DNA of 64,000 bases from a virus: IMG/VR virus record IMGVR_UViG_3300045911_000062, positions 1-64,000 of that record. One strand, given 5' to 3'. Position numbers and translations under genes: made by a program. Under the pieces are notes generated by a model, which had not been told where the DNA came from, ran no database searches, and was given only the letters and a program-made list of their open reading frames with translations. The first letter of the stretch is position 1, and each line of letters starts with the position of its first letter. Below, piece by piece: positions 2,840 to 61,808 of the stretch.

Positions 2840-2869
2840 AAAAAAGGGACTAGAAAATGTCCCTTTTTT
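2840..2869. terminator. Bidirectional rho-independent terminator
   Basis: AAAAAAGGGAC-tagaaaat-GTCCCTTTTTT between convergent genes. Confidence 0.85.
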
Positions 2870-4115
2870 ATTCATAATCCTTAAGTAAGAAACTTTTACA
2901 AGTGTTTGGAAAACAGCTTTTATTATTTTCAGTAAGAAACCAAAACCATCTTGTAGGAAACTTTGGTGAAACACAATTTCCATAGCCATCAGTTATAATA
3001 AATACCGCATCTGGATATTTTTTAAAATTTTTATGAATTGACTCTTCTATAATAGAAAAACTAGTTCCGCCACCCATGGGCAATTTATTTTTATTTAAAT
3101 CAATCTCTTTAACATAAGTGGAAAAGCAAAAAAATCTAACATCAAAACGATCTAAAGGTACGCTTTTTGAAGCGTCAAAAAAGCGCTGTGCGTATTGGTG
3201 ACATGATCCAGATGTATCTAAGAAAAACGCTATTGTAATTTTTTCTTTTTCTTTTTTAATAGAATCAGATATTGTTGGTAAAAAGAAATTTTTACCTAAT
3301 GTTACAAACCTCCTATTCTTTTTGGCCCATTGATAATGTTCGCTTTCTGTCTCCATGAGTTTACTCTTAACCCACTTATGTATGATAGTTTCCCATTTTT
3401 TATTTTTTACAACTTTTTTGTTTTCTAATTCTTGTATTAGAAATGCATAAGCACTATCTTTTGATTTATTACTTGATTTATTATTTTTATAATAATTATC
3501 TAATAAATTTTTTAATTTTTCTAATTCTGATTTGTCAAGCTGTTGAATTATTTCTTTTATCACATCATCAGATAGATTAAACCAACTTCCATGGTCATCT
3601 GCCATTTTTCCATATACTGATAATGGGTTATCCATATTTTTTTGCTTGTTCATCAATAAATCATAGTAGTATTCCATATTCATTCCATATGGAACTTCCT
3701 GATCCGGAAAAACTTTATCCAGCCAAATCAACGTATTGTCAATGTCAACATCACTTCTAATAAATTTATAATGCCTTATTAAAATCTCATTGACGCATAA
3801 ATCAGCAGCAATGTTCATCAATTCCATATTAAAATTTTTATTTTTAGCCATTTCACGAAGCCTAGTCAAATGTGATAGCATTACATGTAGGCATTCATGG
3901 CTTATAAAAAATAATTTTTGTATTTTCGTTGAAGACTCCCAAAATTTTGGATTTATTTTTAATAAATAATGTTCTTCGGTTTCTGCTTCTCTAGAAATTG
4001 AAAGTGTTGGGATCTCTTCCGTAAATTTTATATTACTCATATTTAAAAAAGTATAGTACATGTTACCGTATGGTTGTAAACTTCTTAACAATTCTACTTT
4101 TTCTTCTAATTCCAT
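2868..4115 (-). CDS. Putative metallopeptidase + vWA domain protein (DUF2201-type MoxR partner)
   Basis: HECLH (HExxH) and NIAADLCVN in the N-domain. MIDAS motifs DTSGS, GGGT and ITDG in the C-domain. Confidence 0.85.
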   Translation of the reverse strand: MELEEKVELLRSLQPYGNMYYTFLNMSNIKFTEEIPTLSISREAETEEHYLLKINPKFWESSTKIQKLFFISHECLHVMLSHLTRLREMAKNKNFNMELMNIAADLCVNEILIRHYKFIRSDVDIDNTLIWLDKVFPDQEVPYGMNMEYYYDLLMNKQKNMDNPLSVYGKMADDHGSWFNLSDDVIKEIIQQLDKSELEKLKNLLDNYYKNNKSSNKSKDSAYAFLIQELENKKVVKNKKWETIIHKWVKSKLMETESEHYQWAKKNRRFVTLGKNFFLPTISDSIKKEKEKITIAFFLDTSGSCHQYAQRFFDASKSVPLDRFDVRFFCFSTYVKEIDLNKNKLPMGGGTSFSIIEESIHKNFKKYPDAVFIITDGYGNCVSPKFPTRWFWFLTENNKSCFPNTCKSFLLKDYE

Positions 4116-4118
4116 AAG

Positions 4119-4148
4119 TTGATCCCTACATTTCTCTCATGTTATCAT
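4119..4148 (+). promoter_or_regulatory. Sigma70-like promoter with extended -10
   Basis: TTGATC-N18-TATCAT with TGn before the -10, upstream of the AAA+ gene. Confidence 0.45.
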
Positions 4149-4177
4149 GTTTTCCACTCAAGTAAAAGGAAGCCCTT

Positions 4178-5671
4178 ATGAGTAGTTTAGAAAATAAACT
4201 AAAATTTGCAGCACAAAACCAATTAAATGTAATACTTATAGGACATGCAGGTGTAGGAAAAACTTCAGTAGTTAAAAGTGTGTTTGAGGAATTAGGTTTA
4301 AAGTATCTTTATTATTCAGCTTCAACCATGGATCCATGGGTAGATTTTGTTGGTGTCCCCCATGAAGTAACAGGAGACGACGGGATTAAATATTTGGATC
4401 TAATTCGTCCAAAAGCATTCGCATATGATGATGTAGAAGCTATATTTATAGATGAGTATAACAGGGCGCCTTCAAAAATTCAAAATTCTGTGATGGAATT
4501 GATTCAATTTAAATCAATAAATGGAAAAAAATTTAATAAATTAAAATTGGTATGGGCTGCTATAAATCCAAGCGATGAAGATGACACTGGTAAGGTATAT
4601 AGTGTTGAGAAAATAGATCCTGCACAAATGGATAGATTTCATTTTCAAATAACAGTACCGTACACACTGAACAAAAAATATTTTAAAGAAAAATATCCAG
4701 AATATGCCGATCGTGTTATAGAATGGTGGAATGCTTTACCGAAAATACAAAAAAATTTAGTTTCACCAAGGCGAGTTGACATGGCGCTAAACACACTAAA
4801 ACTTGGTGGCGATTTGAATTGGGTATTACCCAAGGAAGTCAATACAAAAGAATTAATTGATATTATTGATAATGGGTCTTTTGTTGAAAGAATAAAAAAA
4901 TGCTTCCAGGAAAAAAATGAAGAAAAAACTAGAAGTGTTATTTCTGACAATGATAAAATACTTAGTAAATATGTAAAATGTATCTTAGAAAATGAAGAAT
5001 ATATGAATTATTTTATGCCATTCTTCACTGATGAACAAATTGTTGCTTTGATATCTAATAACAATCAAGGTGTTATTGACTACATTAAAAAACCAAATAT
5101 AGCAAAAACAAGAAGGAATGTAATTGTTACTATTGTTAAAAATAAGTCAGTAAAAAAACAAGTATTAGATGAATTTACTAAAATTCTCAGTAGCATAGAT
5201 ATAAAAAATCAACAAAAAAGCGATAGTATCTGTCTTTATGTAGATAAAAACGATACTATAGGAATACCATTAGAAAATAACAGTCATTGGTATAATCATT
5301 ACAAAAAAGTATTGTCTTTTAGTAACAGTTATGACAGGAAAAGAATACTTGAGGCATTAATTTCAATGAAAGGGTATATTTACAAATATTTTGAAGATAA
5401 AGACTTTGAAACTATAAAAAATATATGCATTTGTTCTTTTATTATAATTGGATCTACTCGTAATTTTAACCAAAACGCAGAAGAATTATCTCATTTAGTA
5501 AAAATAATAAACACTTGTTTTTTATTTGCAACACAAAATAATATTGATATAAAAAAGATGCTTCCTCAAGATGATTGGCGTATAAAAAAAGCATTAGAAA
5601 CTATATACCATAACAAAGAAGTATATGAAACACTTCACAGTTATTTCAAGGGTCTTTATGATTATATATAA
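4178..5671 (+). CDS. MoxR-type AAA+ ATPase
   Basis: Walker A GHAGVGKT, Walker B FIDEYNRA, sensor AAIN, DPAQMDRF and SPR motifs. Confidence 0.88.
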   Translation: MSSLENKLKFAAQNQLNVILIGHAGVGKTSVVKSVFEELGLKYLYYSASTMDPWVDFVGVPHEVTGDDGIKYLDLIRPKAFAYDDVEAIFIDEYNRAPSKIQNSVMELIQFKSINGKKFNKLKLVWAAINPSDEDDTGKVYSVEKIDPAQMDRFHFQITVPYTLNKKYFKEKYPEYADRVIEWWNALPKIQKNLVSPRRVDMALNTLKLGGDLNWVLPKEVNTKELIDIIDNGSFVERIKKCFQEKNEEKTRSVISDNDKILSKYVKCILENEEYMNYFMPFFTDEQIVALISNNNQGVIDYIKKPNIAKTRRNVIVTIVKNKSVKKQVLDEFTKILSSIDIKNQQKSDSICLYVDKNDTIGIPLENNSHWYNHYKKVLSFSNSYDRKRILEALISMKGYIYKYFEDKDFETIKNICICSFIIIGSTRNFNQNAEELSHLVKIINTCFLFATQNNIDIKKMLPQDDWRIKKALETIYHNKEVYETLHSYFKGLYDYI

Positions 5672-6125
5672 AAAGTTAGATATAACAACTGTACAAAATG
5701 GTATTGTTGCGCACGGAGTAAATTGTCAGTTTGTAATGGGCGCTGGTGTAGCATTAAGTATAAAAAATAAATGGCCAAATGTTTTCTCAGAATATATTTC
5801 TTATAAACAAAAATGCAATACGAACGATTTACTTGGTAAAGTTTTATTTGTAAAAATATCAGAATCGTTATTTGTAGCTAATTGTTTCACGCAACAATAT
5901 TATGGAAATAAACCTAATGTTCGTTACGCATCTCCTAATGCTATTAGGCGATGCGTAGAACGTTGCGTAGACGAATGTAATGATCGGGGGCTAGACTTAT
6001 ATATGACTAGAATAGGATGCGGTCTAGGCGGTCTTAATTGGAACAGCGATGTCCTGCCAATAGTAGAAAAAATTAATGAAAAACTAAGTGATAAATTAAT
6101 AATATATATTTGTGATTTGAAATGA
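5658..6125 (+). CDS. Macro domain ADP-ribose processing protein (Poa1p/DarG-like)
   Basis: HGVNC, MGAGVA, ANCFTQ and RIGCGLGGL-W motifs. Start reassigned to ATG 5658. Confidence 0.88.
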   Translation: MIIYKKLDITTVQNGIVAHGVNCQFVMGAGVALSIKNKWPNVFSEYISYKQKCNTNDLLGKVLFVKISESLFVANCFTQQYYGNKPNVRYASPNAIRRCVERCVDECNDRGLDLYMTRIGCGLGGLNWNSDVLPIVEKINEKLSDKLIIYICDLK

Positions 6126-13584: not shown

Positions 13585-14868
13585 TTAGTTAAGTAATATT
13601 TTACCACCATCGACACGTAATATGTAACCCCCATTATGCATCAGCAACGCGGGATTACTAGGTTCAGACGATGGTGTAGGTGTAGGTGTAGGCGTAGGTG
13701 TAGGTGTAGGCGTAGGTGGTTCTATGGTATTTACCGTTATATTTAACACTTCCCCTACATTCATATGTATATTATATGGTTTAGGAACTGAACATTCTTC
13801 AAAACCATCAAAACCAGCCCCAAATTTATACCCATATAATCTTATTTCACCATTCCCAGATAACGGAGCGGAGATACTTTCAGCAAATGTTAATATTGTT
13901 GTATTTGTTTCTGGATTGTATGAATGATTACTAATTTTATATTCAGTTAAATTAAACGTATCAGGATTATAGAACCATACTCGTCTTGGGGCTATTAAAC
14001 CAGTTCGCAGTTGAATTGAACCGTGTATATTTTCTGAAACATGATTAAATACATTATTATTTTTTATTTTTATAATAGTATCAGTACCATTATAAGTTAC
14101 TGTTTTTACTTGATATACACCGTTATTTTTATTTGGACTTTTAACTTCGATATAGCCAGATATTGAGGTGGTATCTACCTGTTCGCTTACAATGATTTCT
14201 GTTCTGTTCGATTCTGGTATGTATCTAACTAAAGTTACAGCATAAACGCCGTCATTATAACGGCTGCCAGACACCCTAAAATGCATCTTACTTTTTATTT
14301 CTGAAACTTTATTTCCAGAAATAAAAAAGCTATTGGGCGTATTATGAACTATATCAAAAGTGAAAAAGGGGACTACTAAAAATAATTTATGTATATTGAA
14401 CGTATTTAAATGGTTCCCTCGCAAAATTATTGTATCATGAGATGGAATATTATGAATTTGAATTCTTTTATCAAATGTAAAATTGTTTATTAAATCAGGA
14501 TCTCCAGATAATTCTACCGTATCTGATGTTTCATTTATTGAAATAATAGGAGCAGAAACTAAAAGATCAGAATTGTCAAATATTAATCCATATCCACCGA
14601 TACATTCAAAAAGATCGCAACACTCTACTGCATCAAAACCACATTCTTCGTCCCATATTAAACCAAATCCAACAGGTCCGCATAATGCTAAATTTTTCTT
14701 AATTATGTCGATATTGTGATTTTCTGTAATACCTACAGAAATGTATTCATTTATCCTATATTTTTCGATGACTTCCAACAGCTTAGTATGATACGGTTTT
14801 ACTTCTAAAAAATAGCGTATCAGTGCATCTATAGGTTTTGATATTCCGGGCCTTAGTTCACAAGACAT
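13585..14868 (-). CDS. Putative baseplate/virion structural protein with a C-terminal Pro-Thr tract
   Basis: EVKPYHTK motif, Cys-rich segment and PPTPTPTPTPTPTPTP. CATAAATA at 14891-14898 (-). Confidence 0.6.
   Translation of the reverse strand: MSCELRPGISKPIDALIRYFLEVKPYHTKLLEVIEKYRINEYISVGITENHNIDIIKKNLALCGPVGFGLIWDEECGFDAVECCDLFECIGGYGLIFDNSDLLVSAPIISINETSDTVELSGDPDLINNFTFDKRIQIHNIPSHDTIILRGNHLNTFNIHKLFLVVPFFTFDIVHNTPNSFFISGNKVSEIKSKMHFRVSGSRYNDGVYAVTLVRYIPESNRTEIIVSEQVDTTSISGYIEVKSPNKNNGVYQVKTVTYNGTDTIIKIKNNNVFNHVSENIHGSIQLRTGLIAPRRVWFYNPDTFNLTEYKISNHSYNPETNTTILTFAESISAPLSGNGEIRLYGYKFGAGFDGFEECSVPKPYNIHMNVGEVLNITVNTIEPPTPTPTPTPTPTPTPSSEPSNPALLMHNGGYILRVDGGKILLN
13672..13719 (-). repeat. 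Hexanucleotide coding repeat, (Pro-Thr)7
   Basis: (CCTACA/CCTACG)n on the minus strand. Confidence 0.95.
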
Positions 14869-27999: not shown

Positions 28000-28872
28000 T
28001 TACTCCGAAAATGGAAATACAATTTTTGGATGATGTTGATAATCAATCATTTTAAAACAATCTACAGTAACCCAAGTTTCCAAATCTTCTAAAGAATTGA
28101 TTCTGTCATCTATCCATATTGATGGCGCAGAAAATGGTTGTCTTGTTATTTGATGCATAATTCCATCCATTTGATCTTGGTATATGTGAACATTCCACGA
28201 GAAATGACAGAATTTACCGGGAGACAGACCTGTTATTTTACACATTAATAAAAGTAATAAAGAATACGAAGCAATATTGTAAGGAGCACCTAAAGGCACG
28301 TCCATGCTACGTTGAATCATACATAAATTCAATGTCGAACCCTGTAAACCGAACATATACAATAAATGGCACGGTGGAAGTGCCATAGCATCTAACTCTC
28401 CCGGATTCCAGTGAGTTACTATTAATCTACGATCGTCATTACGTTTATCCAAACGCTCCACAATACATTTTAACTGATCAATTGATCTATTATCATTTGC
28501 CTTCCAATCTCTTGCCTGAGCACCATAGATGCGGCCTAAATCATCTTCTCCTTTCCTATTAGGGTTTTGTAACCATGATTGAGTTTTGTTAGCATTGGCA
28601 TCCCAAATTTTACATCCTAATTTTCTAAAATCTGCGGCGTTGGTACAGCCACGTATGAATCCTAACAATTCAGCAGCAATAGGTCTGATATCCATTTGTT
28701 TAGTAGTCAAAAGTGGAAATTTTCCTTTACTTAAATCGTATTCTCGGTAATCTCCAAATATTGTTGCGCATCGTTTATTAGTTCTTTCGTTTTTTTGTAT
28801 GAAACCGTTATTAATAATTTTTTTACAAAGTTCTATATAATTATTATCAAAATCATTAATTATTTGACTCAT
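28000..28872 (-). CDS. thyA: Thymidylate synthase
   Basis: FPLLTTK, IWD, RR, LPPCH, QRS-D-LG-PYN (Asn, dUMP-type) and HIY. Confidence 0.95.
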   Translation of the reverse strand: MSQIINDFDNNYIELCKKIINNGFIQKNERTNKRCATIFGDYREYDLSKGKFPLLTTKQMDIRPIAAELLGFIRGCTNAADFRKLGCKIWDANANKTQSWLQNPNRKGEDDLGRIYGAQARDWKANDNRSIDQLKCIVERLDKRNDDRRLIVTHWNPGELDAMALPPCHLLYMFGLQGSTLNLCMIQRSMDVPLGAPYNIASYSLLLLLMCKITGLSPGKFCHFSWNVHIYQDQMDGIMHQITRQPFSAPSIWIDDRINSLEDLETWVTVDCFKMIDYQHHPKIVFPFSE

Positions 28873-33031: not shown

Positions 33032-33916
33032 TTATTGAGAAAATTCTAAAGAGAAATCTTTCCAATAATCTCTAGCTCTAATTGGAATTTTTTGATCATT
33101 TATTTTTAAATAAAATTGTGGATCTTCATCGTCTTCATAAAAACAATCCGGCAATTGTTTATTCCACGGCATATTATTTTCTAATGTTTCTAGACAAAGA
33201 GTTGGTATATAATTATCTATAGTTATATTTTGCGTTTTAATCATTTTTATTGGTTCAATGTCATTTACACCTACACTAGCAAAGTAGTCTCTAAACTTTA
33301 TTCCATCTCCCCATAACTTATCAGAAAAATGTAACCATAAACATGGAACTTGATATGCATGTGATGTTATTATTCCATGTAAACTTGAAGATATTATTTT
33401 TTCACAACTAAGAATATCATCTATAAATCTTTCCATTTTCTTAGCTGTTGGTGTTGTAGTATTTAAAATTATAGTATCGCGAAAATGCTCTTCATGTTGT
33501 TTAACAAAACTTACCATATCATGATATTCTATTTGATGTGGTATTATGCCAAGCTTATATTTCTTTTTTATATTTTTATTATTATACATAGATGGTAATA
33601 ATAATGCTGGATCTCCATATACCACTTCTCCAACATCAATTCCAGATTCTTCCAAAACTTTTTTCGTCAACGGACCCCTAACAACATTATAAACTAATCC
33701 GTGTCTAAGTTTTTGTGTTCTAGATATAACACCATTTCCAAAAACATGAGTATTTTTCGACAAATGATGAGTTAATGTACTACCTACTAATGTTATTTTG
33801 TTTTCTATCTCATGATGGCAATAATGAAATGGTATGTTTTTTTTAAATAAAATGTACTGATTTAGGGCATCACCGAAATTATTGGAAGGTATGAAATTAA
33901 TTTTAAGTCTTTTCAT
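33032..33916 (-). CDS. Polysaccharide pyruvyl transferase (second copy)
   Basis: NFGD, VRGP, YGDPALL, GIIPH, SSSLHGII-SHAY and KF-DY motifs. Confidence 0.88.
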   Translation of the reverse strand: MKRLKINFIPSNNFGDALNQYILFKKNIPFHYCHHEIENKITLVGSTLTHHLSKNTHVFGNGVISRTQKLRHGLVYNVVRGPLTKKVLEESGIDVGEVVYGDPALLLPSMYNNKNIKKKYKLGIIPHQIEYHDMVSFVKQHEEHFRDTIILNTTTPTAKKMERFIDDILSCEKIISSSLHGIITSHAYQVPCLWLHFSDKLWGDGIKFRDYFASVGVNDIEPIKMIKTQNITIDNYIPTLCLETLENNMPWNKQLPDCFYEDDEDPQFYLKINDQKIPIRARDYWKDFSLEFSQ

Positions 33917-34823
33917 TTTTTATAAACTTTTCAAAATAATCACTAAATGCTACTTTATTCGGGTTATGTAAGTGACCCCAATCTCTATGATAGAACGAAT
34001 CAAACATTATAGTTTTAAATAAATTTTTATTTTCGTGTGATATGGTTGAATATATTGATTCTTCAGAAAATAATTCTTTATCATTTATTATATCTACAAT
34101 TTTTGATACACATAAACAGCAAAAAATATCCATAAATTCTTTTCTTCCGCCGAAGAACCCGCCTATCATAGAATCTGTACGCATATTCGTGTCTATATGA
34201 TAGAACCGTTTTGGCAGTGGTCTATTGTTGGGTATTGTATGACATATGGATATGATTTTATTTTCTATGTCATTTAAAATATTTTGTATTAAATTTTTAT
34301 TAAAAATTCCAACAGACTTATTAGGATTATTTTTAACATCATGAAAATATTCATGTGGAAATAATAGACTACTAGACAAACCAGCATCAATCCAAAACAA
34401 ATAATCAACAGTAATATTAACTGAATTCATTACGTGACGTATCATTTCAGTTTTACCCCACATGATATGACAATTTCTATCTATCCAAAATCTACTTTTT
34501 AAATATGGATCAGATTTTTCAATTTTAATTTGAAAAATACTGTTAGAAAACCAAAAATCAGTTAAATCTTTTTTTATTACAAATATATTATTATACTCTT
34601 TGAATTCATTACATATCTGATGAAATGTATCACTAGAAGTAAAACAATATATTGGATAACCTATATTTGATATGCTTTTTAAAGATTCTCTATAATATTT
34701 TTCTCTATCTGGTCTTCCGCCAAATGGCGTTCCATGATAACCATCATAAATACAAGTTACAAATATGACATTATTATAGTTCTTTTTATTTTTTTTCACA
34801 GCATAACCATGCACATTTTTCAA
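33903..34823 (-). CDS. HtrL/WlaTC-like putative glycosyltransferase
   Basis: FVT-IY, K--M, FWIDAG, GGFFGG and EE motifs, shared with the middle domain of 35391..37730. Confidence 0.6.
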   Translation of the reverse strand: MKNVHGYAVKKNKKNYNNVIFVTCIYDGYHGTPFGGRPDREKYYRESLKSISNIGYPIYCFTSSDTFHQICNEFKEYNNIFVIKKDLTDFWFSNSIFQIKIEKSDPYLKSRFWIDRNCHIMWGKTEMIRHVMNSVNITVDYLFWIDAGLSSSLLFPHEYFHDVKNNPNKSVGIFNKNLIQNILNDIENKIISICHTIPNNRPLPKRFYHIDTNMRTDSMIGGFFGGRKEFMDIFCCLCVSKIVDIINDKELFSEESIYSTISHENKNLFKTIMFDSFYHRDWGHLHNPNKVAFSDYFEKFIKNEKT

Positions 34824-35349
34824 AGTCTATATTTGAGTATTTTTTTAAATTTTTTAATGATTCTAATACATCGGAATCTATTATTTCACACCAATCCCAA
34901 TATGTATCTTTAATATTGTTTAAAAAATGTTCCTCATTTATAGCATAATCGTGTGCCATAATAAAATCGCCAGAGTTTATTATCCTAGAAAAATAATTAA
35001 ATTCCTTTTTTTTATCGCCACCGTCACATAAAATCAAAGTTTTTCCACTTGATATTTTATCATTGATAATATCTAATGCATCTTTAGAGAATACGTCTAA
35101 TATTATTCTTCCTTTTAAATTTTCGTCTCCTACCCTATCAACAATATCAAAAGATAAAAAATTATAATTATATTCTATAGATTTTTCATATAAAAACAAA
35201 CAAAATCCACCATATGCAGTTCCAATTTCTATAACATTTTTAAAATTTTGTTCTTTTAAAAAAACATCAAAAGATGCAAATGTTATATTATTTTGCATAG
35301 CTTTAAAGTTTTTATATACAAAAAATCCAGTTTTATTAAAGTAATCCAT
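34786..35349 (-). CDS. Class I SAM-dependent O-methyltransferase (CmcI-like)
   Basis: VIEIGTAYGG, LILCDGG-K--EF and GD-I-AHDY. Confidence 0.75.
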   Translation of the reverse strand: MDYFNKTGFFVYKNFKAMQNNITFASFDVFLKEQNFKNVIEIGTAYGGFCLFLYEKSIEYNYNFLSFDIVDRVGDENLKGRIILDVFSKDALDIINDKISSGKTLILCDGGDKKKEFNYFSRIINSGDFIMAHDYAINEEHFLNNIKDTYWDWCEIIDSDVLESLKNLKKYSNIDFEKCAWLCCEKK

Positions 35350-35369
35350 TTTCTTTATTGTTTATATAA

Positions 35370-35377
35370 TATTTATA
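35370..35377 (-). promoter_or_regulatory. T4-type late promoter inside glycosylation island C
   Basis: Exact TATAAATA on the minus strand, 20 nt before ATG 35349. Confidence 0.55.
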
Positions 35378-35390
35378 TATTAACTTTGAG

Positions 35391-37730
35391 TTAATTTTCC
35401 CTTCGTTCGTGAGGTTTATAATGTTTAATTCTATTATGTAATATTGGAGATGCTAATAAAACTGCTGGCCTCAAATTACCTTCTTTAGTCATCTGGTACA
35501 TATAAGACATCCATGTTTGTTCATATGGATGAACCCATTTTGTATCAATAAACATTTTCTTATTACCTTTTTTAGAAACTATCATTGGCCAGTTTGCATA
35601 ATAAATTTCACCGTCAATATATGTTAATCCATCCAAATTTCTTATATTTTTGAAAATCGTCAACGGTGAATTGGGATCTAGACCTTGAATTGGTAATTTA
35701 TCATAATCTGGCCAATCTCTACTCCTTATATGTTGCGGAACGTTATACCATGAACATTGTTTATCATTGTCCAAGAACACTTCTGTAAAAGTTAATTTTA
35801 GAAAATCAAATTCATCTTTTAGCATTATTCTATGCACTAAATTATAAAGATTTGGAATATATTTTCTAAATCCATTCCTACAAAATTGTGATGAAAACTC
35901 TGGAGGGTTAATCGTCATATCATCTTCAAAGAAAAACATAAAATCTGCTTCAGAATCATGAAAATGTTCAGCGGCTCTTTGTCTTCCACCACATATACCA
36001 GTATTTCCGTTCATATCTATGTATTCAAATTTATACTCATTAGCAATCTTTTTATTTTGTTTTTTTGCTTTTACGTCTGTTGAATTGTCTATAAGAACTA
36101 AATGTGGCCTTTTTAACCATTCTGGTGTTTTTTCCATAGATTTAATAGTATGCTGTAATTGTTCTGGAAAATTGAATGTTAATATATACAGATTTGTCTT
36201 GTACTTTTCTACATCTTTATCGGTATATATTTTTATATTTTTAATTTTCTTTTTTTCTGTTTCAACAATTTTAACATTACCGTCGATAATAGCCTGTGTA
36301 AATTTAACAATTAAACCATTCCCATCCAATTCAAATCTTCTATAAATGTCAGGCTGATTATATGCCATGATCGTAAATATACTTTCCTCAGTCCCCATAT
36401 AACCATCATTTAATGTTTTATTTAAAATAGAATAATATGTTGCATTCGCATCATTTATTTGTTTTTTATGTCCACCAAATAGCCCACCTCTACAAACATA
36501 TTCTACTTTTTTTCCAGCGTAAATATTAATTTTATTAAATTCAAATCCATGAATTTCGGTATTAGCTTCATATGGATAACTAAGAAACAAAAATGGATTT
36601 GCATACTCTGGTAATTTGTCGAGTACATTATTATCTACTAAATGAGAATATGAAACAGTATTTGTAATACCAGCGTCTAACCAGAAAAAATATTCAGTAT
36701 CAAATGGATTCCAAATAGTCGCATCATTTAGCATAAACATTTTTGATTGTACTATTGGGTTGTACCACTCTAAACTGGCTTGTGGCGATTCAGATAACCA
36801 TCCTGCTAAATTTCTCCATTTAGGATTATTGCGTATTTTTTGTGTAACATCCCAAAAAGGTGAATATAATTTTTTTATATCTTCTAATTCATATATTTTT
36901 ACATAAGTGTTGCGTCTGTCTCTTTTTTCCCAAACTAAATATTCCAAATCTTTTGGAATATAAATAAAAAGATTTTGTGGAATATCTAAAAAATTTTTAA
37001 AGTTTTCTATATAATGTTCAAATGGTCTGCCGACTCTGTTAATGTTCCACAATCCTGTAACTATAGTCATGTTTTTATTAACATTAATGCTATTTTTATA
37101 TTTCATATTAACAAAATCCTCAAATTGTTCAACTCGACCAATTTTTAAATTATTTTTTCGAACTATTAATAAATTATATGTATAAAAATATTCATGATTA
37201 TCAATAATATTAAAAATTTCATGTCGATAATCTACTAAAACATTACTAGAATCTGCATTGCCACCTATATCTTCAATTATATAGTATCCATCATTTTTTA
37301 CTTTGTTAAACAAATTTATAAATGTTTTATACTGACCTTCTGAAGTATGTAAGCCATCATCTATTATAATATCAAATGTTAGTCCATTTAAATTATCTTC
37401 ACAGCTTTGTTTATCCAAAGAACTAAACAAAAATGTTTTTATTCTATCTTCAGAAATCATACAATCTTCTGCTATGTCAACGCCATATATATTTGCATTT
37501 TTAAAGTATTCTTTCCAGGCTCGTAAACAAGCTGCTGGCTTATAGTGTGGGTAAAAATTAGTCACTCCTACAAATGTAGATTCAATATTTGGATCTAAAG
37601 TACCTAAGCCAACCTCCAATATGTCTATACTATTATCTCTAATTTTTTCAAACAATGCAGAGTATTTTTTAGTATATCCAGAAAGAAATTTATCACTACC
37701 ATTTTTAATTATTATATCATCTAAGTTCAT
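35391..37730 (-). CDS. Three-domain protein: methyltransferase + HtrL-like + GT2-like glycosyltransferase
   Basis: Methyltransferase: SDK...LEVG...GVDI...IIIDDG-H...YIIED. HtrL-like: IVTGLW...WLDAG...GGLFGG...GTEE. GT2-like: IDNS...N-GI-GGR...FFEDD. Confidence 0.75.
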   Translation of the reverse strand: MNLDDIIIKNGSDKFLSGYTKKYSALFEKIRDNSIDILEVGLGTLDPNIESTFVGVTNFYPHYKPAACLRAWKEYFKNANIYGVDIAEDCMISEDRIKTFLFSSLDKQSCEDNLNGLTFDIIIDDGLHTSEGQYKTFINLFNKVKNDGYYIIEDIGGNADSSNVLVDYRHEIFNIIDNHEYFYTYNLLIVRKNNLKIGRVEQFEDFVNMKYKNSINVNKNMTIVTGLWNINRVGRPFEHYIENFKNFLDIPQNLFIYIPKDLEYLVWEKRDRRNTYVKIYELEDIKKLYSPFWDVTQKIRNNPKWRNLAGWLSESPQASLEWYNPIVQSKMFMLNDATIWNPFDTEYFFWLDAGITNTVSYSHLVDNNVLDKLPEYANPFLFLSYPYEANTEIHGFEFNKINIYAGKKVEYVCRGGLFGGHKKQINDANATYYSILNKTLNDGYMGTEESIFTIMAYNQPDIYRRFELDGNGLIVKFTQAIIDGNVKIVETEKKKIKNIKIYTDKDVEKYKTNLYILTFNFPEQLQHTIKSMEKTPEWLKRPHLVLIDNSTDVKAKKQNKKIANEYKFEYIDMNGNTGICGGRQRAAEHFHDSEADFMFFFEDDMTINPPEFSSQFCRNGFRKYIPNLYNLVHRIMLKDEFDFLKLTFTEVFLDNDKQCSWYNVPQHIRSRDWPDYDKLPIQGLDPNSPLTIFKNIRNLDGLTYIDGEIYYANWPMIVSKKGNKKMFIDTKWVHPYEQTWMSYMYQMTKEGNLRPAVLLASPILHNRIKHYKPHERREN

Positions 37731-37775
37731 GGCCAATACTTTAAAAAAATAATAATATTAGTGCATTAGTAAATT

Positions 37776-40466
37776 TCACAAACCTATCTCCACTCTTTCG
37801 GCCCATCCTCTTTCTGGTGAATGTCCCCAAAAAACTAATCTATTTGGTTTTTCATTAATAATAAACATTTCTTCATAGTGAATAGTACCATCTCCATTCA
37901 AAAATCTTTTTAGATTTTGTCCATCAATGTATTTTGTATGAATTGGTTTCCCTTCTTTGTCATCAAAAGCTACTAATATAAAATTATAATCGTTTGCTGG
38001 TAATTGTTTTCTATCTATATTAACTAGATGGTAAAATGATTTGTGGAATGATTCTTCCCATTCTCGTTCAGATTTATATGTGTATGGATTTGGCGGAAAA
38101 TTATTTTCCATTGTCCATTTCTGGAAAGCACGTTTTTTGAAATGTATTCCAGCATATTTCTCATAATCACGTAAAGATCTTACTTTTCCTAATGTATATG
38201 GTCCTAGATCGTGACCATTATTTTCTGTTTGTAGTAATTGCCTAATACGAGATCTGGCTATATCTTGTTGCTTCCACCATCTGTTATCTCCTCGTTTATG
38301 ATGATCGTCCCAAACTAAAATTCCAGACCGCTCCTCACGCATTGTTGCATGCCATATAACTACCCTGTGAGGATGAAATAAATCATATCCATGAGTATAG
38401 CTTCTGACTGTTAAATTTATCTCTTCTCCACTAAAAAATATATTAGGATCATGACGAACATCTCTAGCCCATTTATTAGGTCCAAAAGCAAAATGACCGC
38501 TTAAGAATCTTGCTGGATATGGCTTAGTAAGACTCTTCCAATTTTTAACAGCAGTCGGCCTAATAAAAATAGTTCCGAATGGATAAAAACATGCTGCTTC
38601 TGATAACCACGGCTCTTGTACTCTATCTGCCGGATCATTTTTTGGATTATAATATGGCAAATAACCACATATTAAAGGATTATATCCTTCATTCTTTAAT
38701 TCGTAGTACCAAGACAAAAGTGTAATATCCCAATCTTCTTTAAATCTATGGTGAGAATCTAATTGTAAAACAAATTCTTCATCTTCAAGTAAAGTATCAT
38801 TTATTAAAGCTCTTGCATATCCCAATCCTTTAGCTTCTAAGTAATTAATATCTATTATTTTAAATCTGGAATCAGTTCTAAATTCATCTAAATTATCAAA
38901 CCCATCATCTGGATTGAATTGCCTACATATTCCAAAAATTATTCTATCTGGATATTTTGCATTCTTTAGAGCATCCTTTATAGTAGGAACTAACTCTGGC
39001 TCTCTATATGCTGGTAGATGAACCAATATTCTATCAGATTTTATATGTTCATCTATTGATTTTATAATTTGTATTTTATTCTCATCTTGTTTATACTTTA
39101 CATCAATATTAAAATTTATAGTAGGCACTTTTTCTTCAATTTTGTTTTTTTCGTATATGTTTCCTTCTATAATAGATTGCCAACCATGCTCTTTTGAATG
39201 AGGCCATACGATCCACTTATAAGGTTTTTTATCATAATAAAAAGATCTCCAAATTTTACAATAACCATCTGGATCATTTTTCATTCTTTTTATTTCTTCG
39301 GGGTCTATATCTTGACGATGAATCTCTTTGCCATCTTCATCCTTAAATGCTACAACTAAACAGGTATAATCATCATATGGCAACTGATTAAATTGAATAT
39401 CTATGCAATGTTTAAAAAAGTTTAAAAATGAATTATTATAATCTTCTTCATTATCAAACTGTGGATTCGGAGCATAATTATTTTCTAAAGTGTATCTTTG
39501 AACTTTTTTATCACTAAACCTTATTCCCGAATATTTTTCATAATCTTTTAAAGTCCTTTCTGGTCCAAAACCATACTTACCAAACTCTTCAGGGTTATAA
39601 ATTTCACCGTCCATACTAAACAATTTTCTACAACGCAAATGTGCATTAGAATTTAGTTTATGCCAATTTGAATAATCATCCCAATGTTTCTTCAACCCCC
39701 TTCTTGTATAGAAATGCCAAGCGACCACTTTATGAAGATGATATAAATCATACCCCCATGTAAAAGCACGTACTGCAATAGAATGCTCTTCTCCATGGAA
39801 ATATAATTCTGGATCGTGTTGAACCTCTACAGCAAATTCACCCTGAGTAAATGCAAAATGTGCAGAATAAAATCTTGCTGCAACTGGTTCGGTTCTAGAC
39901 TCATAATCATCTATCGTTGCTGGTAAAAAATGCACTATACCTTCTGGACTAAATCTATCAAAATTCATTTTCCATGGTGCTTTGAGCCTGCTATCAGGAT
40001 CATTATCAGGATCATATGATGGTAAATAACAAGTTATTAATGGTTTTTTTGATTTTTTCTTCAATGATTCATATTCATTTATTAAAATACTATCCCATTT
40101 TTCTACAAATCTATGATGAGAATCTAATTGAAGTGTATATTTTTCCCCATTATATTCCTGTTGAATCCTATTTCTCGCCCAGCATGCGCCCTTAGATTCA
40201 GTATATGGGACGTCTAATAAAAGTATAGACGCCCCATCTTTACTTAGTAAGTATTTGTCGAAATCTTTATCGATTTCAGAAAACACCTGCTCTATAATAA
40301 AGTTATTATCTAAAAAATTTTCTACTGATTCATCGTCTGAATGTTGCCAATTTACACAAATCTTTAAATTTTGTGGGTATTCAGCATTTTTTATAATATC
40401 TATTAATGTAGGTATTAATTCGTTATCTCTATAAGATGCAATCTGTACAAAAATTGTATTTTCCAT
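37776..40466 (-). CDS. Tandem double GT60-type (Gnt1/GlcNAc family) polypeptide N-acetylhexosaminyltransferase
   Basis: Two repeats. Domain 1: IFVQIASYRD-EL--T, KGACWAR, LQLDSHHRF, F-GEE, R-FT-GYD, WH. Domain 2: ILVHLPAYRE-EL--T, KGLGYAR, LQLDSHHRF, FSGEE, RSYTHGYD, WH. Confidence 0.8.
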   Translation of the reverse strand: MENTIFVQIASYRDNELIPTLIDIIKNAEYPQNLKICVNWQHSDDESVENFLDNNFIIEQVFSEIDKDFDKYLLSKDGASILLLDVPYTESKGACWARNRIQQEYNGEKYTLQLDSHHRFVEKWDSILINEYESLKKKSKKPLITCYLPSYDPDNDPDSRLKAPWKMNFDRFSPEGIVHFLPATIDDYESRTEPVAARFYSAHFAFTQGEFAVEVQHDPELYFHGEEHSIAVRAFTWGYDLYHLHKVVAWHFYTRRGLKKHWDDYSNWHKLNSNAHLRCRKLFSMDGEIYNPEEFGKYGFGPERTLKDYEKYSGIRFSDKKVQRYTLENNYAPNPQFDNEEDYNNSFLNFFKHCIDIQFNQLPYDDYTCLVVAFKDEDGKEIHRQDIDPEEIKRMKNDPDGYCKIWRSFYYDKKPYKWIVWPHSKEHGWQSIIEGNIYEKNKIEEKVPTINFNIDVKYKQDENKIQIIKSIDEHIKSDRILVHLPAYREPELVPTIKDALKNAKYPDRIIFGICRQFNPDDGFDNLDEFRTDSRFKIIDINYLEAKGLGYARALINDTLLEDEEFVLQLDSHHRFKEDWDITLLSWYYELKNEGYNPLICGYLPYYNPKNDPADRVQEPWLSEAACFYPFGTIFIRPTAVKNWKSLTKPYPARFLSGHFAFGPNKWARDVRHDPNIFFSGEEINLTVRSYTHGYDLFHPHRVVIWHATMREERSGILVWDDHHKRGDNRWWKQQDIARSRIRQLLQTENNGHDLGPYTLGKVRSLRDYEKYAGIHFKKRAFQKWTMENNFPPNPYTYKSEREWEESFHKSFYHLVNIDRKQLPANDYNFILVAFDDKEGKPIHTKYIDGQNLKRFLNGDGTIHYEEMFIINEKPNRLVFWGHSPERGWAERVEIGL

Positions 40467-48322: not shown

Positions 48323-48961
48323 TTATTCGAACCATTTTGAATAGTCGCCTGGAAATTTATTTTTATCATATACATATGGTTTAGTTGCTGCTATATAAAA
48401 TCTAACCTGATGTAAATCTCCATATAAAATATCACTAGTACAGTTTATGAAATGTTCTTCCCCAGGAAAAACAACCAAAGTACCGCGTTTGGGATTGATA
48501 GAAAAATTATGATTTAAAAATTGTAATTTACCGCCCATTACTTCATAATATGGATCTAAGGGTTTTTTATCTCTATAATCCTTCAAAAATAAAACTGCGC
48601 AAAAATCCTTTGAATTAATTCTGTACCAACTTTTTTTTCCGTTTGTAGCAACAAATACGCTATTTTCACAACGTTGTTTATTATTTTTACAGCCCTGTGG
48701 GTAATATTCTATTTCAAATGGATGCATACCTTTATACTCAAAATCATAATATTTTTCTAATTCTGGTATAAGAATGTCATTTATAGATTCTGAAAGTCTC
48801 AATTCTGCTAACCTATTAAATCGTACACTCATTATAGGGTTATTGTTTTCATCTCTGTCTGGTACTTCTATAATACATGAATCTACTATTTCTTCACACA
48901 ATAACGGTGAAACAAAATCTTCAAATAATAAAATTGGTGACTTAAACATAAAAAACCTCAT
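48323..48961 (-). CDS. Prolyl-4-hydroxylase-like 2OG-Fe(II) oxygenase fold, metal ligands degenerate
   Basis: Fold motifs EDFVSP--C, Y--G, VLFL-D, GG-L-F and P--G-LVVFP are present. The HxD/E...H ligands are replaced by RCE...N. Confidence 0.65.
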   Translation of the reverse strand: MRFFMFKSPILLFEDFVSPLLCEEIVDSCIIEVPDRDENNNPIMSVRFNRLAELRLSESINDILIPELEKYYDFEYKGMHPFEIEYYPQGCKNNKQRCENSVFVATNGKKSWYRINSKDFCAVLFLKDYRDKKPLDPYYEVMGGKLQFLNHNFSINPKRGTLVVFPGEEHFINCTSDILYGDLHQVRFYIAATKPYVYDKNKFPGDYSKWFE

Positions 48962-54375: not shown

Positions 54376-55932
54376 TTAGTCATTGACATTATGATTTATC
54401 CATTCCCATTTACTAGAACCATAATCGTAAATATGGTAAAAGCCATCCAAAAATCTTAATTCTTTTTCTGTCATGTTCTTTGGTTCTCCATCTTTCTTTC
54501 TCATACTAAACCTGTGAATTCTTTTAAGTTCATTCGGCTTAAAATACCAATAATTTGGTACAGTTTGTCTAATAAAAGAAAAACCAAGTTTTCCATAAAC
54601 ATTACCATTTGACCATCTTGAATCAGCATATGTTATAACTTTATCTGGATTAAACTGTTTTAAAAAATACTTGAAAATTTTACTAGCGCCTCCAACAACA
54701 GAGACATCAATTCTATTACAAAATCTAGTTATTTCCCATTCTAAATTTTTTCTAGAAATATTCACTTTAGAAAATGACATAGCAGATAATAGTTCTTCTT
54801 TGTAAAATAAACCGTATCTGACCTGTGAATTGCCGTATCCCTGTATATGATTTTCTTCAAAAAATTTTTTAGCAGTTAAAATATCTAATTCTTTTATTAT
54901 ACATTTTCTAGCACCGATTTTTATACTGCTCCCAAATATATTATTCAATTTGGATACAACTATTTGTTTTTTGTTAATCCATTCATCTTCAAAAATACAA
55001 ATTATCTTTATTCCTTCACTTCTAAGTTTTATATATTTTTCAAAATCTTTTATTTTAGATTTATTATTATAAGATAAAACTTCTACAGAATGCCAATACA
55101 AACCATTATATTCTATTCCAAGATTTTTAGATGGAATATATATGTCTATAATGCCATGCACAGTTCTATAGTTTAAAATTGCATCTGAAGATAACTCTTT
55201 AACTAAATTATATACTTCTTTTTGTGCTTTGCTTGTTAAAAAAGTTCTTGGAAAACATACTGGACAAAGTTTTTCGTGAAATTTACAATCATTAAAATAT
55301 TGTTTTGTAAAACTAAACTGTGTTTTACAAATTTTACAACATAACTGTAATTGAGTATTACTTATGTCATTAATAAGTTCTAAATTAGATTTTTGAATTT
55401 TTTCAATAATGCTTATATGACTTTTTTCAATTATTTTTTGCCTATATTTTTTAAATAATTCAGCGAATAATTTTATGTTTTCAAAAGAGTGTTTTTTACC
55501 TCTAAACGATGGTACAGGAGAAATCCCTTTATTAATTTTTGTCTTTTGTGCCTTTTTAAATCTTTCAGCTAATTCTTTTTTGTTGTTTTCTGAATATTTT
55601 TTAATCGAATTGGAAATTTTAGATTTGGTCTCTTCACTTAAACTATTGTATTCTCTACGTTTCAGTTGGCTAGAATTATATTTTTGTTCTCTCAAAATGT
55701 AAGACTGTTTTTGAGCATCTGTCAATTTTATTTTTTTATTTTTGTTCCAAGGAATTTTTTTAGAATTTGTTTTTTTAAAATGTTCTGATTTTTTCTTTCT
55801 ATATTCATCGGTTGATAAACTATTTACCCCAAAAAGTTTTTTATAATCAACAGGAAGAATACCATGCTTCTTTAAATGTGATGGATGAATTACTGATTTA
55901 AATTGTGATTTACATATTTGGCAAGTTATCAT
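54376..55932 (-). mobile_element. Free-standing putative homing endonuclease (same family as 30127..31719)
   Basis: C--C...HL--H finger, PWNK and F-GKKHS (NUMOD3-like), IDIYIP...GIEYNGLYWHS, IFEDEW, NHIQG, GGASK and IYD-G. Start reassigned to MITCQIC. Confidence 0.75.
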
Positions 55933-55949
55933 AGTAAGAATATACAACA

Positions 55950-55982
55950 AAAAAGGCAAGGACACAAGTTCCTTGCCTTTTT
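55950..55982 (-). terminator. Rho-independent terminator downstream of the tail sheath gene
   Basis: AAAAAGGCAAGGA-cacaagt-TCCTTGCCTTTTT. Confidence 0.85.
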
Positions 55983-59116: not shown

Positions 59117-59842
59117 TTATTTAGTTATTGTATTATTTATAATTATACCAAGCAAAATAGTCTCATTCCATACATGAGTAGAAATTGTTGCATAAAATTC
59201 TATATTAGATCTAATTATATGTTCAATATAATTAGCATAATCACCATCGTCTACTGAATCAGAATTGCTCAAGGATTTATTGACATATTGATTATCAGTT
59301 AAATCAAACCAAGAGATAGCATTCAATGCTTCCGGCAAACTACCACTTTCTGATAGTATAACACATAGTGTAATTCATGGTGTAATTGATGGTGTAATAG
59401 ATGGTGTAATTGATGGTGTAATAGATGGTGTAATAGATGGTGTAATAGATGGTGTAATAGATGGTGTAATAGATGGTGTAATAGATGGTGTAATAGATGG
59501 TGTAATAGATGGTGTAATAGATGGTGTAATAGATGGTGTAATAGATGGAGTATTACTGACTATTACAAATTGTTTTGAATTTTCAATAAAATATATGTTA
59601 AGAAGTCCAATAACATTATTTGAAAAATTAAAATTTATATATGTATCATTATATGTTATATTGTTAGGATATATTTGTTGGCCATTTATATCTAAAATAT
59701 TAAAATAAAAATTTGTTCCGTAATTTCTTACTGATACAGAATTACCATTAAACTTTATAGATCGCCATTTATCATTATCTGGTGCCTGACCAGAATGTAA
59801 TATTATATTTCCAGTTAGTATATCTAAAAAACAATTTGACAT
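59117..59842 (-). CDS. PSIT-repeat structural protein. One 242-codon frame is split by a single TGA (59375-59377) in the last repeat unit; the ORF track lists it as two ORFs
   Basis: CCA TGA ATT ACA versus repeat consensus CCA TCA ATT ACA. The frame continues without a stop into the 59117..59338 ORF. Confidence 0.7.
59369..59548 (-). repeat. 12-bp tandem array: (Pro-Ser-Ile-Thr)14 plus one stop-containing unit
   Basis: (CCATCWATTACA)n. Confidence 0.97.
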
Positions 59843-59927: not shown

Positions 59928-61784
59928 TCAAAATGATGATGGTGTTGGCGTTACATCTGGTGTAATTGTTGGGGTTGGTGTCGGTGTCAATGTAATATTT
60001 GGATCAATATCAATAGAGTTCAATTCACCAAATGCAATTGTTTGAATATCTTCATTAGATGGATCTATAAAATCGACTAAAGAAAAAGAAGAAATAGTAT
60101 TACCATCAAATTCAAATGCATAACCGTTTGAATTTAATGGGAAATAAATTCTATGACGACCTGAACGCCCGGAAACATGCATAGAAGATGCATATGATCC
60201 CATATCATATAGTGGATTAAAAAGTTCATTTCCTAAATGATCAGTCATAATAAATCCACTTGAATAAATTTGAAGGTTATAATCTGATGTGTCAACTAAA
60301 TATGTCACATAGCCTGTAATGGTATCCATTTTAACATCTAATAAATTTGAAATTGTATAAGAGTTATTTAATGATATGGTTCCAAAACTATCTACAGAAA
60401 AATAATTTCCAATATGATCTACACCTGTGTATACATATGCAAAAACAGTGTTATTATAATATTGAATATATTCTATTTCATCATCAAAAGTATATGTATC
60501 AACTAAAGTAAATGTATTTGTTATATTATCAAACGTGTATGTATGAAAACTATAATTTTCACATATTACATAATAATCTCCAACTTTACCTATATTTCTA
60601 CAATGCATATTTGTATTAGAAATTAAATTTAAATGATTATTTGTTATAGTAAATATTAACAAACCTGGAGGTGTTAAATTCTCTGGCGGTATTCCTTCCG
60701 TAAAACCCTGTCCCGCTGGCACGAATAGATATTCAGTTCCATCAATATAAGTAAATAAAACATCCCTAGTAAAAAGAAAACAAGAACCATTCCATGGATA
60801 TGGTTCTACTATTGCATCATAATATGAAGTTATAAACAATGAAGAACCATATCTAACCAACATTAAAATTGAATCATACCTGACCAAAACTGCATGATTA
60901 TTATGAATGGCGGATAGTATTGTATAAGTTTCAGTGTTAAAAACTAAATCTGGAAAATCATAATTATATGCAATTATATTTAAATCTGACATATCATACG
61001 ACACATATGAAGATGCATCGACGTTTGATTGTAACATAAATTCTTCTTCAACAACAAGTATTGGCGTATTTGATGGTGTAATAGATGGTGTAATAGATGG
61101 TGTAATAGATGGTGTAATAGATGGTGTAATAGATGGTGTAATAGATGGTGTAATTGATGGTGTAATTGATGGTGTAATTGATGGTGTAATTGATGGTGTA
61201 ATTGATGGTGTAATTGATGGTGTAATTGATGGTGTAATTGATGGTGTAATTGATGGTGTAATTGATGGTGTAATTGATGGTGTAATAGATGGTGTAATAG
61301 ATGGTGTAATTGATGGTGTAATTGATGGTGTAATTGATGGTGTAATTGATGGTGTAATAGATGGTGCTACATATTCTATATTAATGTAATCTTTTATGTC
61401 TACAAAAATTAAATTGGCATCCATAACAAAACCAACTTTTTGCATTATCCCTTTATTTGGTACAACAGTAGTTAATTCTCCGCTTTTACCTAAAAAAAGT
61501 GGAGTCATTGGGGGTGCAGAAAATATATTTTCACCAAAATCTATAACGCCAAATCTAATATATTTAATAAGTTCTTGTGGAGAAGAATTTTGTATTGCTA
61601 CTCCATGACATTCTAAAAAATTTGCTGTTGATGCCAATTTTACTAAATTATCACCATACGATACATTTACACAATAAAATTTTGGTATATATTCTATTGC
61701 AGACCCTTCGAGATGTTGACATTCAAATTTAGTGCTACGTAGATAATTATCTATAATTGATATTTTTTTATCTGGGTCAATCAT
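59928..61784 (-). CDS. Putative fibre protein: anchor module + (PSIT)24 stalk + beta-rich head + TP tail
   Basis: N-module shared with 791/25632, then the repeat, about 350 aa of aromatic beta-rich sequence and C-terminal TPTPTPTITPDVTPTP. CATAAATA at 61806-61813 (-). Confidence 0.65.
   Translation of the reverse strand: MIDPDKKISIIDNYLRSTKFECQHLEGSAIEYIPKFYCVNVSYGDNLVKLASTANFLECHGVAIQNSSPQELIKYIRFGVIDFGENIFSAPPMTPLFLGKSGELTTVVPNKGIMQKVGFVMDANLIFVDIKDYINIEYVAPSITPSITPSITPSITPSITPSITPSITPSITPSITPSITPSITPSITPSITPSITPSITPSITPSITPSITPSITPSITPSITPSITPSITPSITPSNTPILVVEEEFMLQSNVDASSYVSYDMSDLNIIAYNYDFPDLVFNTETYTILSAIHNNHAVLVRYDSILMLVRYGSSLFITSYYDAIVEPYPWNGSCFLFTRDVLFTYIDGTEYLFVPAGQGFTEGIPPENLTPPGLLIFTITNNHLNLISNTNMHCRNIGKVGDYYVICENYSFHTYTFDNITNTFTLVDTYTFDDEIEYIQYYNNTVFAYVYTGVDHIGNYFSVDSFGTISLNNSYTISNLLDVKMDTITGYVTYLVDTSDYNLQIYSSGFIMTDHLGNELFNPLYDMGSYASSMHVSGRSGRHRIYFPLNSNGYAFEFDGNTISSFSLVDFIDPSNEDIQTIAFGELNSIDIDPNITLTPTPTPTITPDVTPTPSSF
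61077..61364 (-). repeat. 12-bp tandem array encoding (Pro-Ser-Ile-Thr)24
   Basis: 288 bp of (CCATCWATTACA)n, the same unit as 59369-59548. Confidence 0.97.
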
Positions 61785-61808
61785 TTGAAAATCCAAAGAT
61801 GTTAGTAT

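Follow-up and report, generated by a model that had tools for sequence, protein, structure and literature searches.

A fused two-unit GT60-type glycosyltransferase of a jumbo phage, a candidate initiator of O-glycosylation on Pro/Ser/Thr-repeat proteins

We analysed positions 1 to 64,000 of the IMG/VR virus record IMGVR_UViG_3300045911_000062 (this stretch is called the window), part of a 73.9-kb record estimated to be about 21% complete, with a GC content of about 29%. Here, we focus on one minus-strand open reading frame (ORF) at 37776-40466, which starts with ATG, runs without interruption and encodes a protein of 896 residues, P0001. This protein belongs to the GT60 family of glycosyltransferases (GTs) and joins two catalytic units, A and B, which both keep an intact active site, resemble polypeptide transferases in fold, and are linked in related phages to genes for proteins with Pro/Ser/Thr repeats. 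From these features we infer a donor, an acceptor and a division of labour, and the protein is probably a cytoplasmic initiating O-glycosyltransferase pair for phage fibre or virion proteins. New here are the enrichment of repeat genes directly upstream of the GT gene, the phylogeny of the A and B units, and a correlation between the Ser/Thr content of the repeats and the presence of unit B.

Two GT60-type units in one protein

The gene and its parts are as follows.

37776..40466, minus strand: fused A+B GT60-type glycosyltransferase gene, P0001 (PF11397 E 1.6e-117; mean model confidence 91.5)
39483..40466, minus strand: catalytic unit A, GT-A fold, residues 1-328 (PF11397 over residues 4-317; DSH at residues 115-117)
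39141..39482, minus strand: accessory domain A, residues 329-442, predicted small beta-sandwich (model confidence 93 when folded alone; outside the Pfam GT60 model)
39051..39140, minus strand: low-confidence linker, about residues 443-472 (model confidence 43-64; a stop and a new start lie here in most relatives)
38109..39050, minus strand: catalytic unit B, residues 473-786 (PF11397 match; DSH at residues 570-572)
37779..38108, minus strand: accessory domain B, residues 787-896, paralog of accessory domain A (half-versus-half BLASTP and paralog alignment)

The first-pass annotation, made from the letters of the DNA, had proposed a tandem double enzyme of GT60 type and a search against PF11397 to verify it. 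That search gave a strong match in both halves: the PF11397 profile (GlcNAc; GT60) scores 393 bits over the 896-residue protein, against a cut-off of 21 bits, in three stretches, which cover profile positions 1-350 (out of 352) in half A, and positions 2-43 and 93-351 in half B. PHROG 24687, annotated as glycosyltransferase, also matches the protein twice. Residues 1-460 and 461-896 align with each other at 37% identity over 439 columns (BLASTP E 2e-97), far beyond chance. By profile and by fold, the latter adding similarity to GT27, the protein is a PF11397/GT60 member.

The two full catalytic repeats described in the annotation are present in the translation, each with its LQLDSHHRF motif (40107-40133 in unit A, 38742-38768 in unit B), a GEE motif (residues 225-227 and 680-682) and a WH motif (residues 250-251 and 705-706). 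Across 47 fused homologs, D115, S116, H117, E226, E227, W250 and H251 are invariant in unit A, as are D570, H572, E681, E682 and W705 in unit B, and the DxH, EE and WH residues are also kept in about 100 separate A and B units. The homologs conserve D115-S-H117 plus H251 in one unit and D570-S-H572 plus H706 in the other; by analogy with GT27 structures, these would act as metal ligands. The protein begins directly at beta-strand 1, and neither its sequence nor its AlphaFold2 (AF2) model has an N-terminal signal or membrane segment.

Modelled at full length with AF2, the protein reaches a mean predicted local distance difference test (pLDDT, the model confidence given above) of 91.5 and a predicted template modelling score (pTM) of 0.55; this pTM, taken with the low-confidence linker, would fit two independent modules. 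The best Foldseek match of the model is human GalNAc-T4. Once the matches were re-aligned, the first 29 places among PDB entries went to GT27 polypeptide N-acetylgalactosamine (GalNAc) transferases, which align to model residues 469-788, in unit B, with Z 19.6-23.2, a root-mean-square deviation of 3.3-3.7 Å over about 280 residues and an identity of 12-15%. Other GT-A enzymes rank below them (Z<=17.6). A PDB sequence search with the whole protein returned one chance match (E 0.06) and no GT27 chain at E<=1.

A domain of roughly 100 residues had been noted behind each repeat, and folded domains of about 110 residues are indeed predicted at residues 329-442 and 787-896. Folded alone, the accessory domain is a small beta-sandwich (pLDDT 93), for which Foldseek returned nothing at E<=1e-3, and the best hits of VIA-align were generic FN3-type domains (Z<=7.4); no beta-trefoil was among its structure matches. 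In the model, this domain holds the position of the ricin lectin of GT27 enzymes, yet it is not a ricin-type lectin.

Old paralogs, usually separate and here fused

A relative of the gene occurs in at least 591 IMG/VR viral contigs, from which 80 related loci were fetched. The usual layout in these loci consists of two adjacent genes of about 420 residues each, often overlapping, the first always resembling half A and the second half B. Among the fetched loci, a fused gene is found only in the window and in L006, L007 and L008, while a large protein database holds about 50 fused clusters of 825-1070 residues, which cover 98-100% of the query. The fused examples are 46-82% identical to the window in A and 55-85% in B, and since they are divergent from one another, the fusion is old or recurrent. 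It is not an assembly artefact, because these full-coverage clusters exist and because an independent complete phage genome (locus L006, genome G001) carries the same 896-residue ORF at 82% identity. The two halves, judged by sequence comparison, are old paralogs that are fused in the window. The idea of a tandem double enzyme is thus correct with regard to the two units, and is amended in that it arose by fusion of two old paralogous genes that are usually separate.

A phylogeny built from about 100 units recovers B as a clean clade (36/36, support 0.99), with the single-copy sequences nested among A units. Where a phage has one copy only, as do XacN1 and Xoo-sp13, this copy is of the A type, with 47-57% identity to half A and 35-44% to half B, and the A unit of the window lies close to this single-copy clade, though it is fused to B. 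B without A was never seen where 10 kb of context exists. The A copies within A+B pairs are 41-47% identical to half A of the window, and the B copies 56-74% to half B. At ten positions, A and B are each fixed for a different residue, while the catalytic and metal-motif residues are conserved in both types. The diagnostic positions include A10/P485, S229/N684 right behind GEE, Y253-T254/T708-M709 right behind WH, and three in the accessory domain; residues 352/812 and 406/865 are also diagnostic pairs.

The N-terminal motif also differs between the units, being ASYRD in unit A and PAYRE in unit B, as the annotation had pointed out. The divergence is real; its interpretation as a sign of different nucleotide donors was rejected, because the Y-R-(D/E) core is common to both types and Y12 and R13 are conserved in all units, so that the motif gives no ground for a difference in donor.

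One copy of a duplicated enzyme domain frequently becomes inactive, and the A copies in A+B pairs diverge faster than the B copies. One unit only might therefore be catalytically relevant, the other being a degenerate, lectin-like or scaffold copy. We consider this improbable, given that the metal-binding and catalytic motif residues are invariant in both units in all homologs examined, and that B is a well-conserved clade.

Candidate acceptors and genomic context

Three proteins with Pro/Ser/Thr tracts are encoded in the window.

59928..61796, minus strand: candidate acceptor P0003, 622 residues, with an N-domain, about 24 PSIT units, a beta-rich domain and a TP-rich tail (translation; tail/neck module)
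59375..59842, minus strand: candidate acceptor P0004, 155 residues, with about 16 PSIT units at its end (translation)
13585..14868, minus strand: candidate acceptor P0005, 427 residues, with a (PT)7 tract near the C-terminus (translation and tract scan)

The P0003 and P0004 genes lie between a tail-sheath-stabiliser gene and a virion structural gene, adjoining the sheath gene; in T4-like phages, the corresponding region encodes neck and whisker proteins. The complete relative G001 (306,759 bp, with direct terminal repeats) encodes at least six proteins with a P0003-type N-domain and/or Pro/Ser/Thr tracts. In XacN1 and Xoo-sp13, a giant protein with a PT tract is encoded 9 kb from the GT. The predicted target in these cultured relatives is a PT-tract protein of the ORF325 type.

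As a separate observation, the P0004 frame (59117-59842, minus strand) has an in-frame TGA within its last PSIT unit (TP*IT) and runs 85 residues more to a second stop. This TGA may represent a nonsense allele or a site of readthrough, or else mark a recent pseudogene of a longer repeat protein.

Proteins that carry long tracts of the (T/S)P(S/T)(I/V)T type are encoded within 10 kb of the GT in 34/80 related loci, and in many loci a repeat protein of 700-1800 residues ends 13-70 nt upstream of the GT start, on the same strand. For a test of position, the loci were dereplicated into 62 clusters, and position within the GT loci served as the baseline (an internal control), polymerase-centred control loci being too few (n=4). 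A tract is present in 13/61 genes at position -1 compared with 31/1066 other genes (odds ratio 9, Fisher p 1.3e-7), and in 0/182 genes at positions +1 to +3. An initiating role of the enzyme on PSIT and PT tracts gains indirect support from these repeat genes directly upstream of the GT in related phages. The densest interleaving of enzymes and candidate acceptors was seen at locus coordinates 941-11299 of L031 (IMGVR_UViG_3300010158_000120), in the order PST, PST, GT-A, PST, PST, GT-B, where PST stands for a Pro/Ser/Thr-repeat gene.

The composition of the tracts correlates with the paralog content of the loci. In A+B loci (n=17), tracts have a median Ser share, S/(S+T), of 0.44, compared with 0.20 in A-only loci (n=8; Mann-Whitney p 3.7e-6), with ranges that barely overlap. 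The other proteins of the same loci do not differ in their Ser/Thr usage (0.51 vs 0.55), and the GC ranges overlap. The window, with its fused A+B gene and PSIT tracts with a Ser share of 0.5, conforms to this pattern. A split between Thr and Ser, one of the options raised in the first-pass annotation for the two units, agrees with the correlation between Ser share and the B paralog, which fits equally well a split between naked peptide and glycopeptide, as known for the animal GalNAc-T isoforms.

Several points weigh against an action of the enzyme on virion repeat proteins. In the window, about 19 kb separates the PSIT genes from the GT, and the neighbours on the upstream side of the GT are replication genes. 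A repeat protein within 10 kb is present in only 34 of the 80 related loci. Since these loci are related by phylogeny, the enrichment p-values overstate their independence, and few independent lineages underlie the Ser/Thr contrast. The assignment of the repeat proteins to the virion derives from gene position: searches of Pfam and PHROGs with eight repeat proteins of related loci gave no structural annotation; one of the proteins has a P-domain, and the match of PHROG 15511 to repeat proteins is confined to the low-complexity tract. In favour of such an action, two or more glycoproteins were found in XacN1 virions, and the authors proposed ORF328 and ORF334 as their makers (PMC5852040). ORF334 is the ortholog of the window gene, and its link to these glycoproteins has the status of a proposal.

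The acceptors might also be host proteins, glycosylated as part of a takeover, or hydroxyproline, the residue modified on Skp1 by Dictyostelium Gnt1, an established hydroxyproline-directed member of GT60. Every PSIT unit contains a Pro, and the 212-residue product of an ORF upstream of the polymerase (48323-48961, minus strand) weakly matches a 2OG-Fe(II) oxygenase (PF13640, E 0.004, 14 bits), as does its G001 ortholog at the same sub-threshold level. A hydroxyproline acceptor would presuppose a prolyl hydroxylase. This oxygenase match lies, however, below the Pfam cut-off and is absent in hmmscan, and a PF13640 search of G001 found no clear prolyl hydroxylase. Furthermore, the Ser/Thr content of the tracts covaries with the paralog content, which points to hydroxy-amino-acid acceptors, and host targets would leave the adjacency to phage repeat genes unexplained. 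We regard such acceptors as unlikely.

Downstream, the GT gene heads a co-directional minus-strand block, in which the gaps are short or the genes overlap. The block continues as follows.

35391..37736, minus strand: P0002, 781 residues, with a methyltransferase, an HtrL/YibB-like domain and a GT2-like domain (PF09612 4.5e-12; weak GT2 and methyltransferase matches)
33032..35349, minus strand: 187-residue methyltransferase-like protein, 306-residue protein and 294-residue pyruvyl transferase (PF04230 7.5e-13; weak CmcI-type methyltransferase match)

Homologs of P0002 (residues about 220-781) are the most constant neighbours, being encoded within 10 kb of the GT in 69/80 loci, while homologs of the 187-residue and 306-residue proteins are near the GT in 18/80 and 12/80 loci, respectively. 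Elsewhere in the window, sugar genes code for a DegT aminotransferase, a GT-D-like protein, a second pyruvyl transferase and other GTs. In XacN1 (219791-222088) and Xoo-sp13 (223218-225515), corresponding to loci L004 and L005, the A-type GT is followed by a 765-residue carbamoyltransferase in place of the P0002-type protein; to judge from these genes, the glycan decoration of the two phages is probably a different one (O-carbamoylated).

Such sugar genes are open to another interpretation, namely, that the phage makes or alters a polysaccharide of the host surface (O-antigen or capsule), for instance against superinfection, with sugar or lipid-linked acceptors for the GT60 enzyme. A comparative study of jumbo phages reads GT clusters as modifiers of outer polysaccharides (PMC7824862), and the DegT aminotransferase, pyruvyl transferases and methyltransferases of the window would suit this role. 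Against it, no lipid-carrier machinery (priming transferase, flippase, polymerase or membrane protein) turned up in the scanned ORFs, the GT is soluble, and polypeptide transferases rank above polysaccharide synthases among the closest solved folds. As this interpretation also leaves the tight, directional linkage to Pro/Ser/Thr repeats unexplained, we find it rather improbable.

The window encodes a family-B DNA polymerase, 41-44% identical to those of the jumbo phages XacN1 and Xoo-sp13 (Xanthomonas) and CM1 and RAS14 (Stenotrophomonas), and the order polymerase, RNase H, glycosyltransferase is common to the window and these four phages. The GT lies 4.5 kb from the polymerase gene and points the same way, as is also the arrangement in XacN1, and with RNase H and thymidylate synthase genes also nearby, the enzyme could be thought to glycosylate modified bases of phage DNA, in the manner of T4 glucosyl-hydroxymethylcytosine. 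However, the ThyA of the window passes the TIGR03284 thymidylate synthase equivalog (230 bits against a cut-off of 108 bits), and G001 has one ThyA-family gene, which likewise scores as a true thymidylate synthase, and no separate hydroxymethylase of that family, other modified-base routes not having been searched. Linkage to replication genes is not a conserved trait: the polymerase is near the GT in 11/80 related loci, compared with 69/80 for P0002, and the closest folds are polypeptide transferases. Action on DNA is, on this evidence, extremely unlikely.

Other observations concern further genes. The thymidylate synthase of G001 (34698-36608, plus strand) is a single frame of 655 residues, in which the Pfam match is split into parts 2-149 and 142-264, about 1 kb apart, which suggests an intein or another in-frame insertion; the ThyA gene of the window (28000-28872) is uninterrupted. 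A 529-residue homing/HNH endonuclease-like gene (54376-55965, minus strand; PHROGs 3339 and 559, E about 1e-80) adjoins the tail sheath gene. At 2868-6125, three adjacent genes code for a DUF2201 metallopeptidase/VWA-like protein, an AAA ATPase and a macro-domain protein, and may form a stress- or defence-related module.

Returning to the initiation of O-glycosylation on phage proteins, we propose that this jumbo-phage enzyme is soluble and cytoplasmic and acts as a double-headed protein O-glycosyltransferase, in which each head would consist of a Mn2+-dependent GT-A domain (GT60, DxH motif) with an appended beta-sandwich. During infection, it would transfer the first sugar from a uridine diphosphate (UDP)-sugar, probably UDP-N-acetylhexosamine (UDP-HexNAc), to Thr and Ser in Pro/Ser/Thr repeat linkers. 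Its acceptors in the window would be the (PSIT)n and (PT)n proteins, putative fibre-like virion proteins, and P0002, the methyltransferases and the pyruvyl transferase would afterwards lengthen the glycan and cap it. Unit A, the sole type in single-copy phages, would be the core transferase. Unit B, an additional paralog, would probably extend the range of sites to Ser or to neighbours that already carry a glycan.

The division of labour between A and B is a hypothesis and not a result, and its fuller form is one that we put forward tentatively, as possible but on balance doubtful. A would initiate on Thr-Pro sites and B would open Ser sites or neighbours already glycosylated, in a jumbo-phage pathway of mucin-type O-glycosylation with a two-enzyme logic. 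The gain of B would have let the repeats drift from near-pure Thr to mixed Ser/Thr (PSIT), and the fusion would coat the repeat stalk densely per encounter. If this two-enzyme reading is true, hundreds of environmental phages would carry a prokaryotic-virus counterpart of the animal GalNAc-T isoform system.

In a broader context, a family known from cytoplasmic and mucin glycosylation in protists is present in these viral contigs, often wired to mucin-like repeat genes. If the enzymes coat fibres, the sugar layer would have consequences for how phages adsorb, resist proteases, adhere to mucus or particles and are recognised by immune systems, and the clade would then offer simple, soluble, bacterially expressible enzymes for mucin-type glycopeptides. 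The series of A-only, A+B and fused A-B forms, together with the Ser/Thr shift, represents a model in which the evolution of site specificity among initiating O-glycosyltransferases can be tested directly.

Comparison with known systems

The GT60 family includes Dictyostelium Gnt1, the Skp1 hydroxyproline GlcNAc-transferase, and Trypanosoma cruzi OGNT, a polypeptide alpha-GlcNAc-transferase. The phage protein resembles Gnt1/OGNT in its profile match, its GT-A fold with DxH, its soluble cytoplasmic nature and the predicted transfer of a first sugar to protein. It differs from known GT60 enzymes in forming a phage clade, in the extra beta-sandwich of about 110 residues per unit, in the A/B split and fusion, and in its presumed acceptors, the Pro/Ser/Thr repeats of phage proteins.

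The GT27 enzymes (human GalNAc-T2, T4 and T10) are initiators of mucin-type glycosylation on Thr/Ser in Pro-rich repeats, with isoforms that divide naked peptide and glycopeptide between them. They are the closest solved folds and share with the phage protein the DxH motif with a distal His, and the succession of a catalytic domain and a C-terminal accessory domain. Unlike GT27, with which the identity is 12-15%, the phage protein has an FN3-like sandwich instead of a ricin-type lectin and no Golgi membrane anchor. In terms of sequence families, it is not a GT27 member, as Pfam assigns PF11397 only.

XacN1 ORF334 and its orthologs in Xoo-sp13, CM1 and RAS14 come from the same phage lineage, are of A type, are 47-48% identical to half A and are syntenic with the window gene. 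Unlike the latter, they are single units of about 450 residues with no B, and the next gene codes for a carbamoyltransferase instead of P0002.

To our knowledge, experimentally shown glycosylation of phage virions is restricted to few systems, mainly mycobacteriophages. A literature search on GT60 in bacteriophages, PF11397 and phage O-glycosylation returned no characterised phage member, GT60-type initiator or mucin-like repeat acceptor. In mycobacteriophages, chlorovirus PBCV-1 and mimivirus, virus-encoded cytoplasmic GTs decorate the structural proteins of the virus itself, as proposed here. These systems differ by their GT families, and by their acceptors and products, which are capsid or tail-tube ends, N-linked capsid glycans, and fibrils. 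For virion glycosylation in mycobacteriophages, other enzyme families are described by Freeman et al. 2023, as conveyed in PMC12582341.

With regard to the T4 alpha/beta-GT systems, the phage gene is distinguished from them by the lack of an accompanying ThyA-family hydroxymethylase in the window or in G001, the search having been directed at that family and not at other modified-base routes. Two GT-A domains in one chain are also found in the E. coli K4 chondroitin polymerase and in LARGE1, with which both halves of the model align (Z about 16-17). Those enzymes, however, join different activities and polymerise a disaccharide repeat, whereas the phage protein unites paralogs of a single family, which are usually encoded by separate genes.

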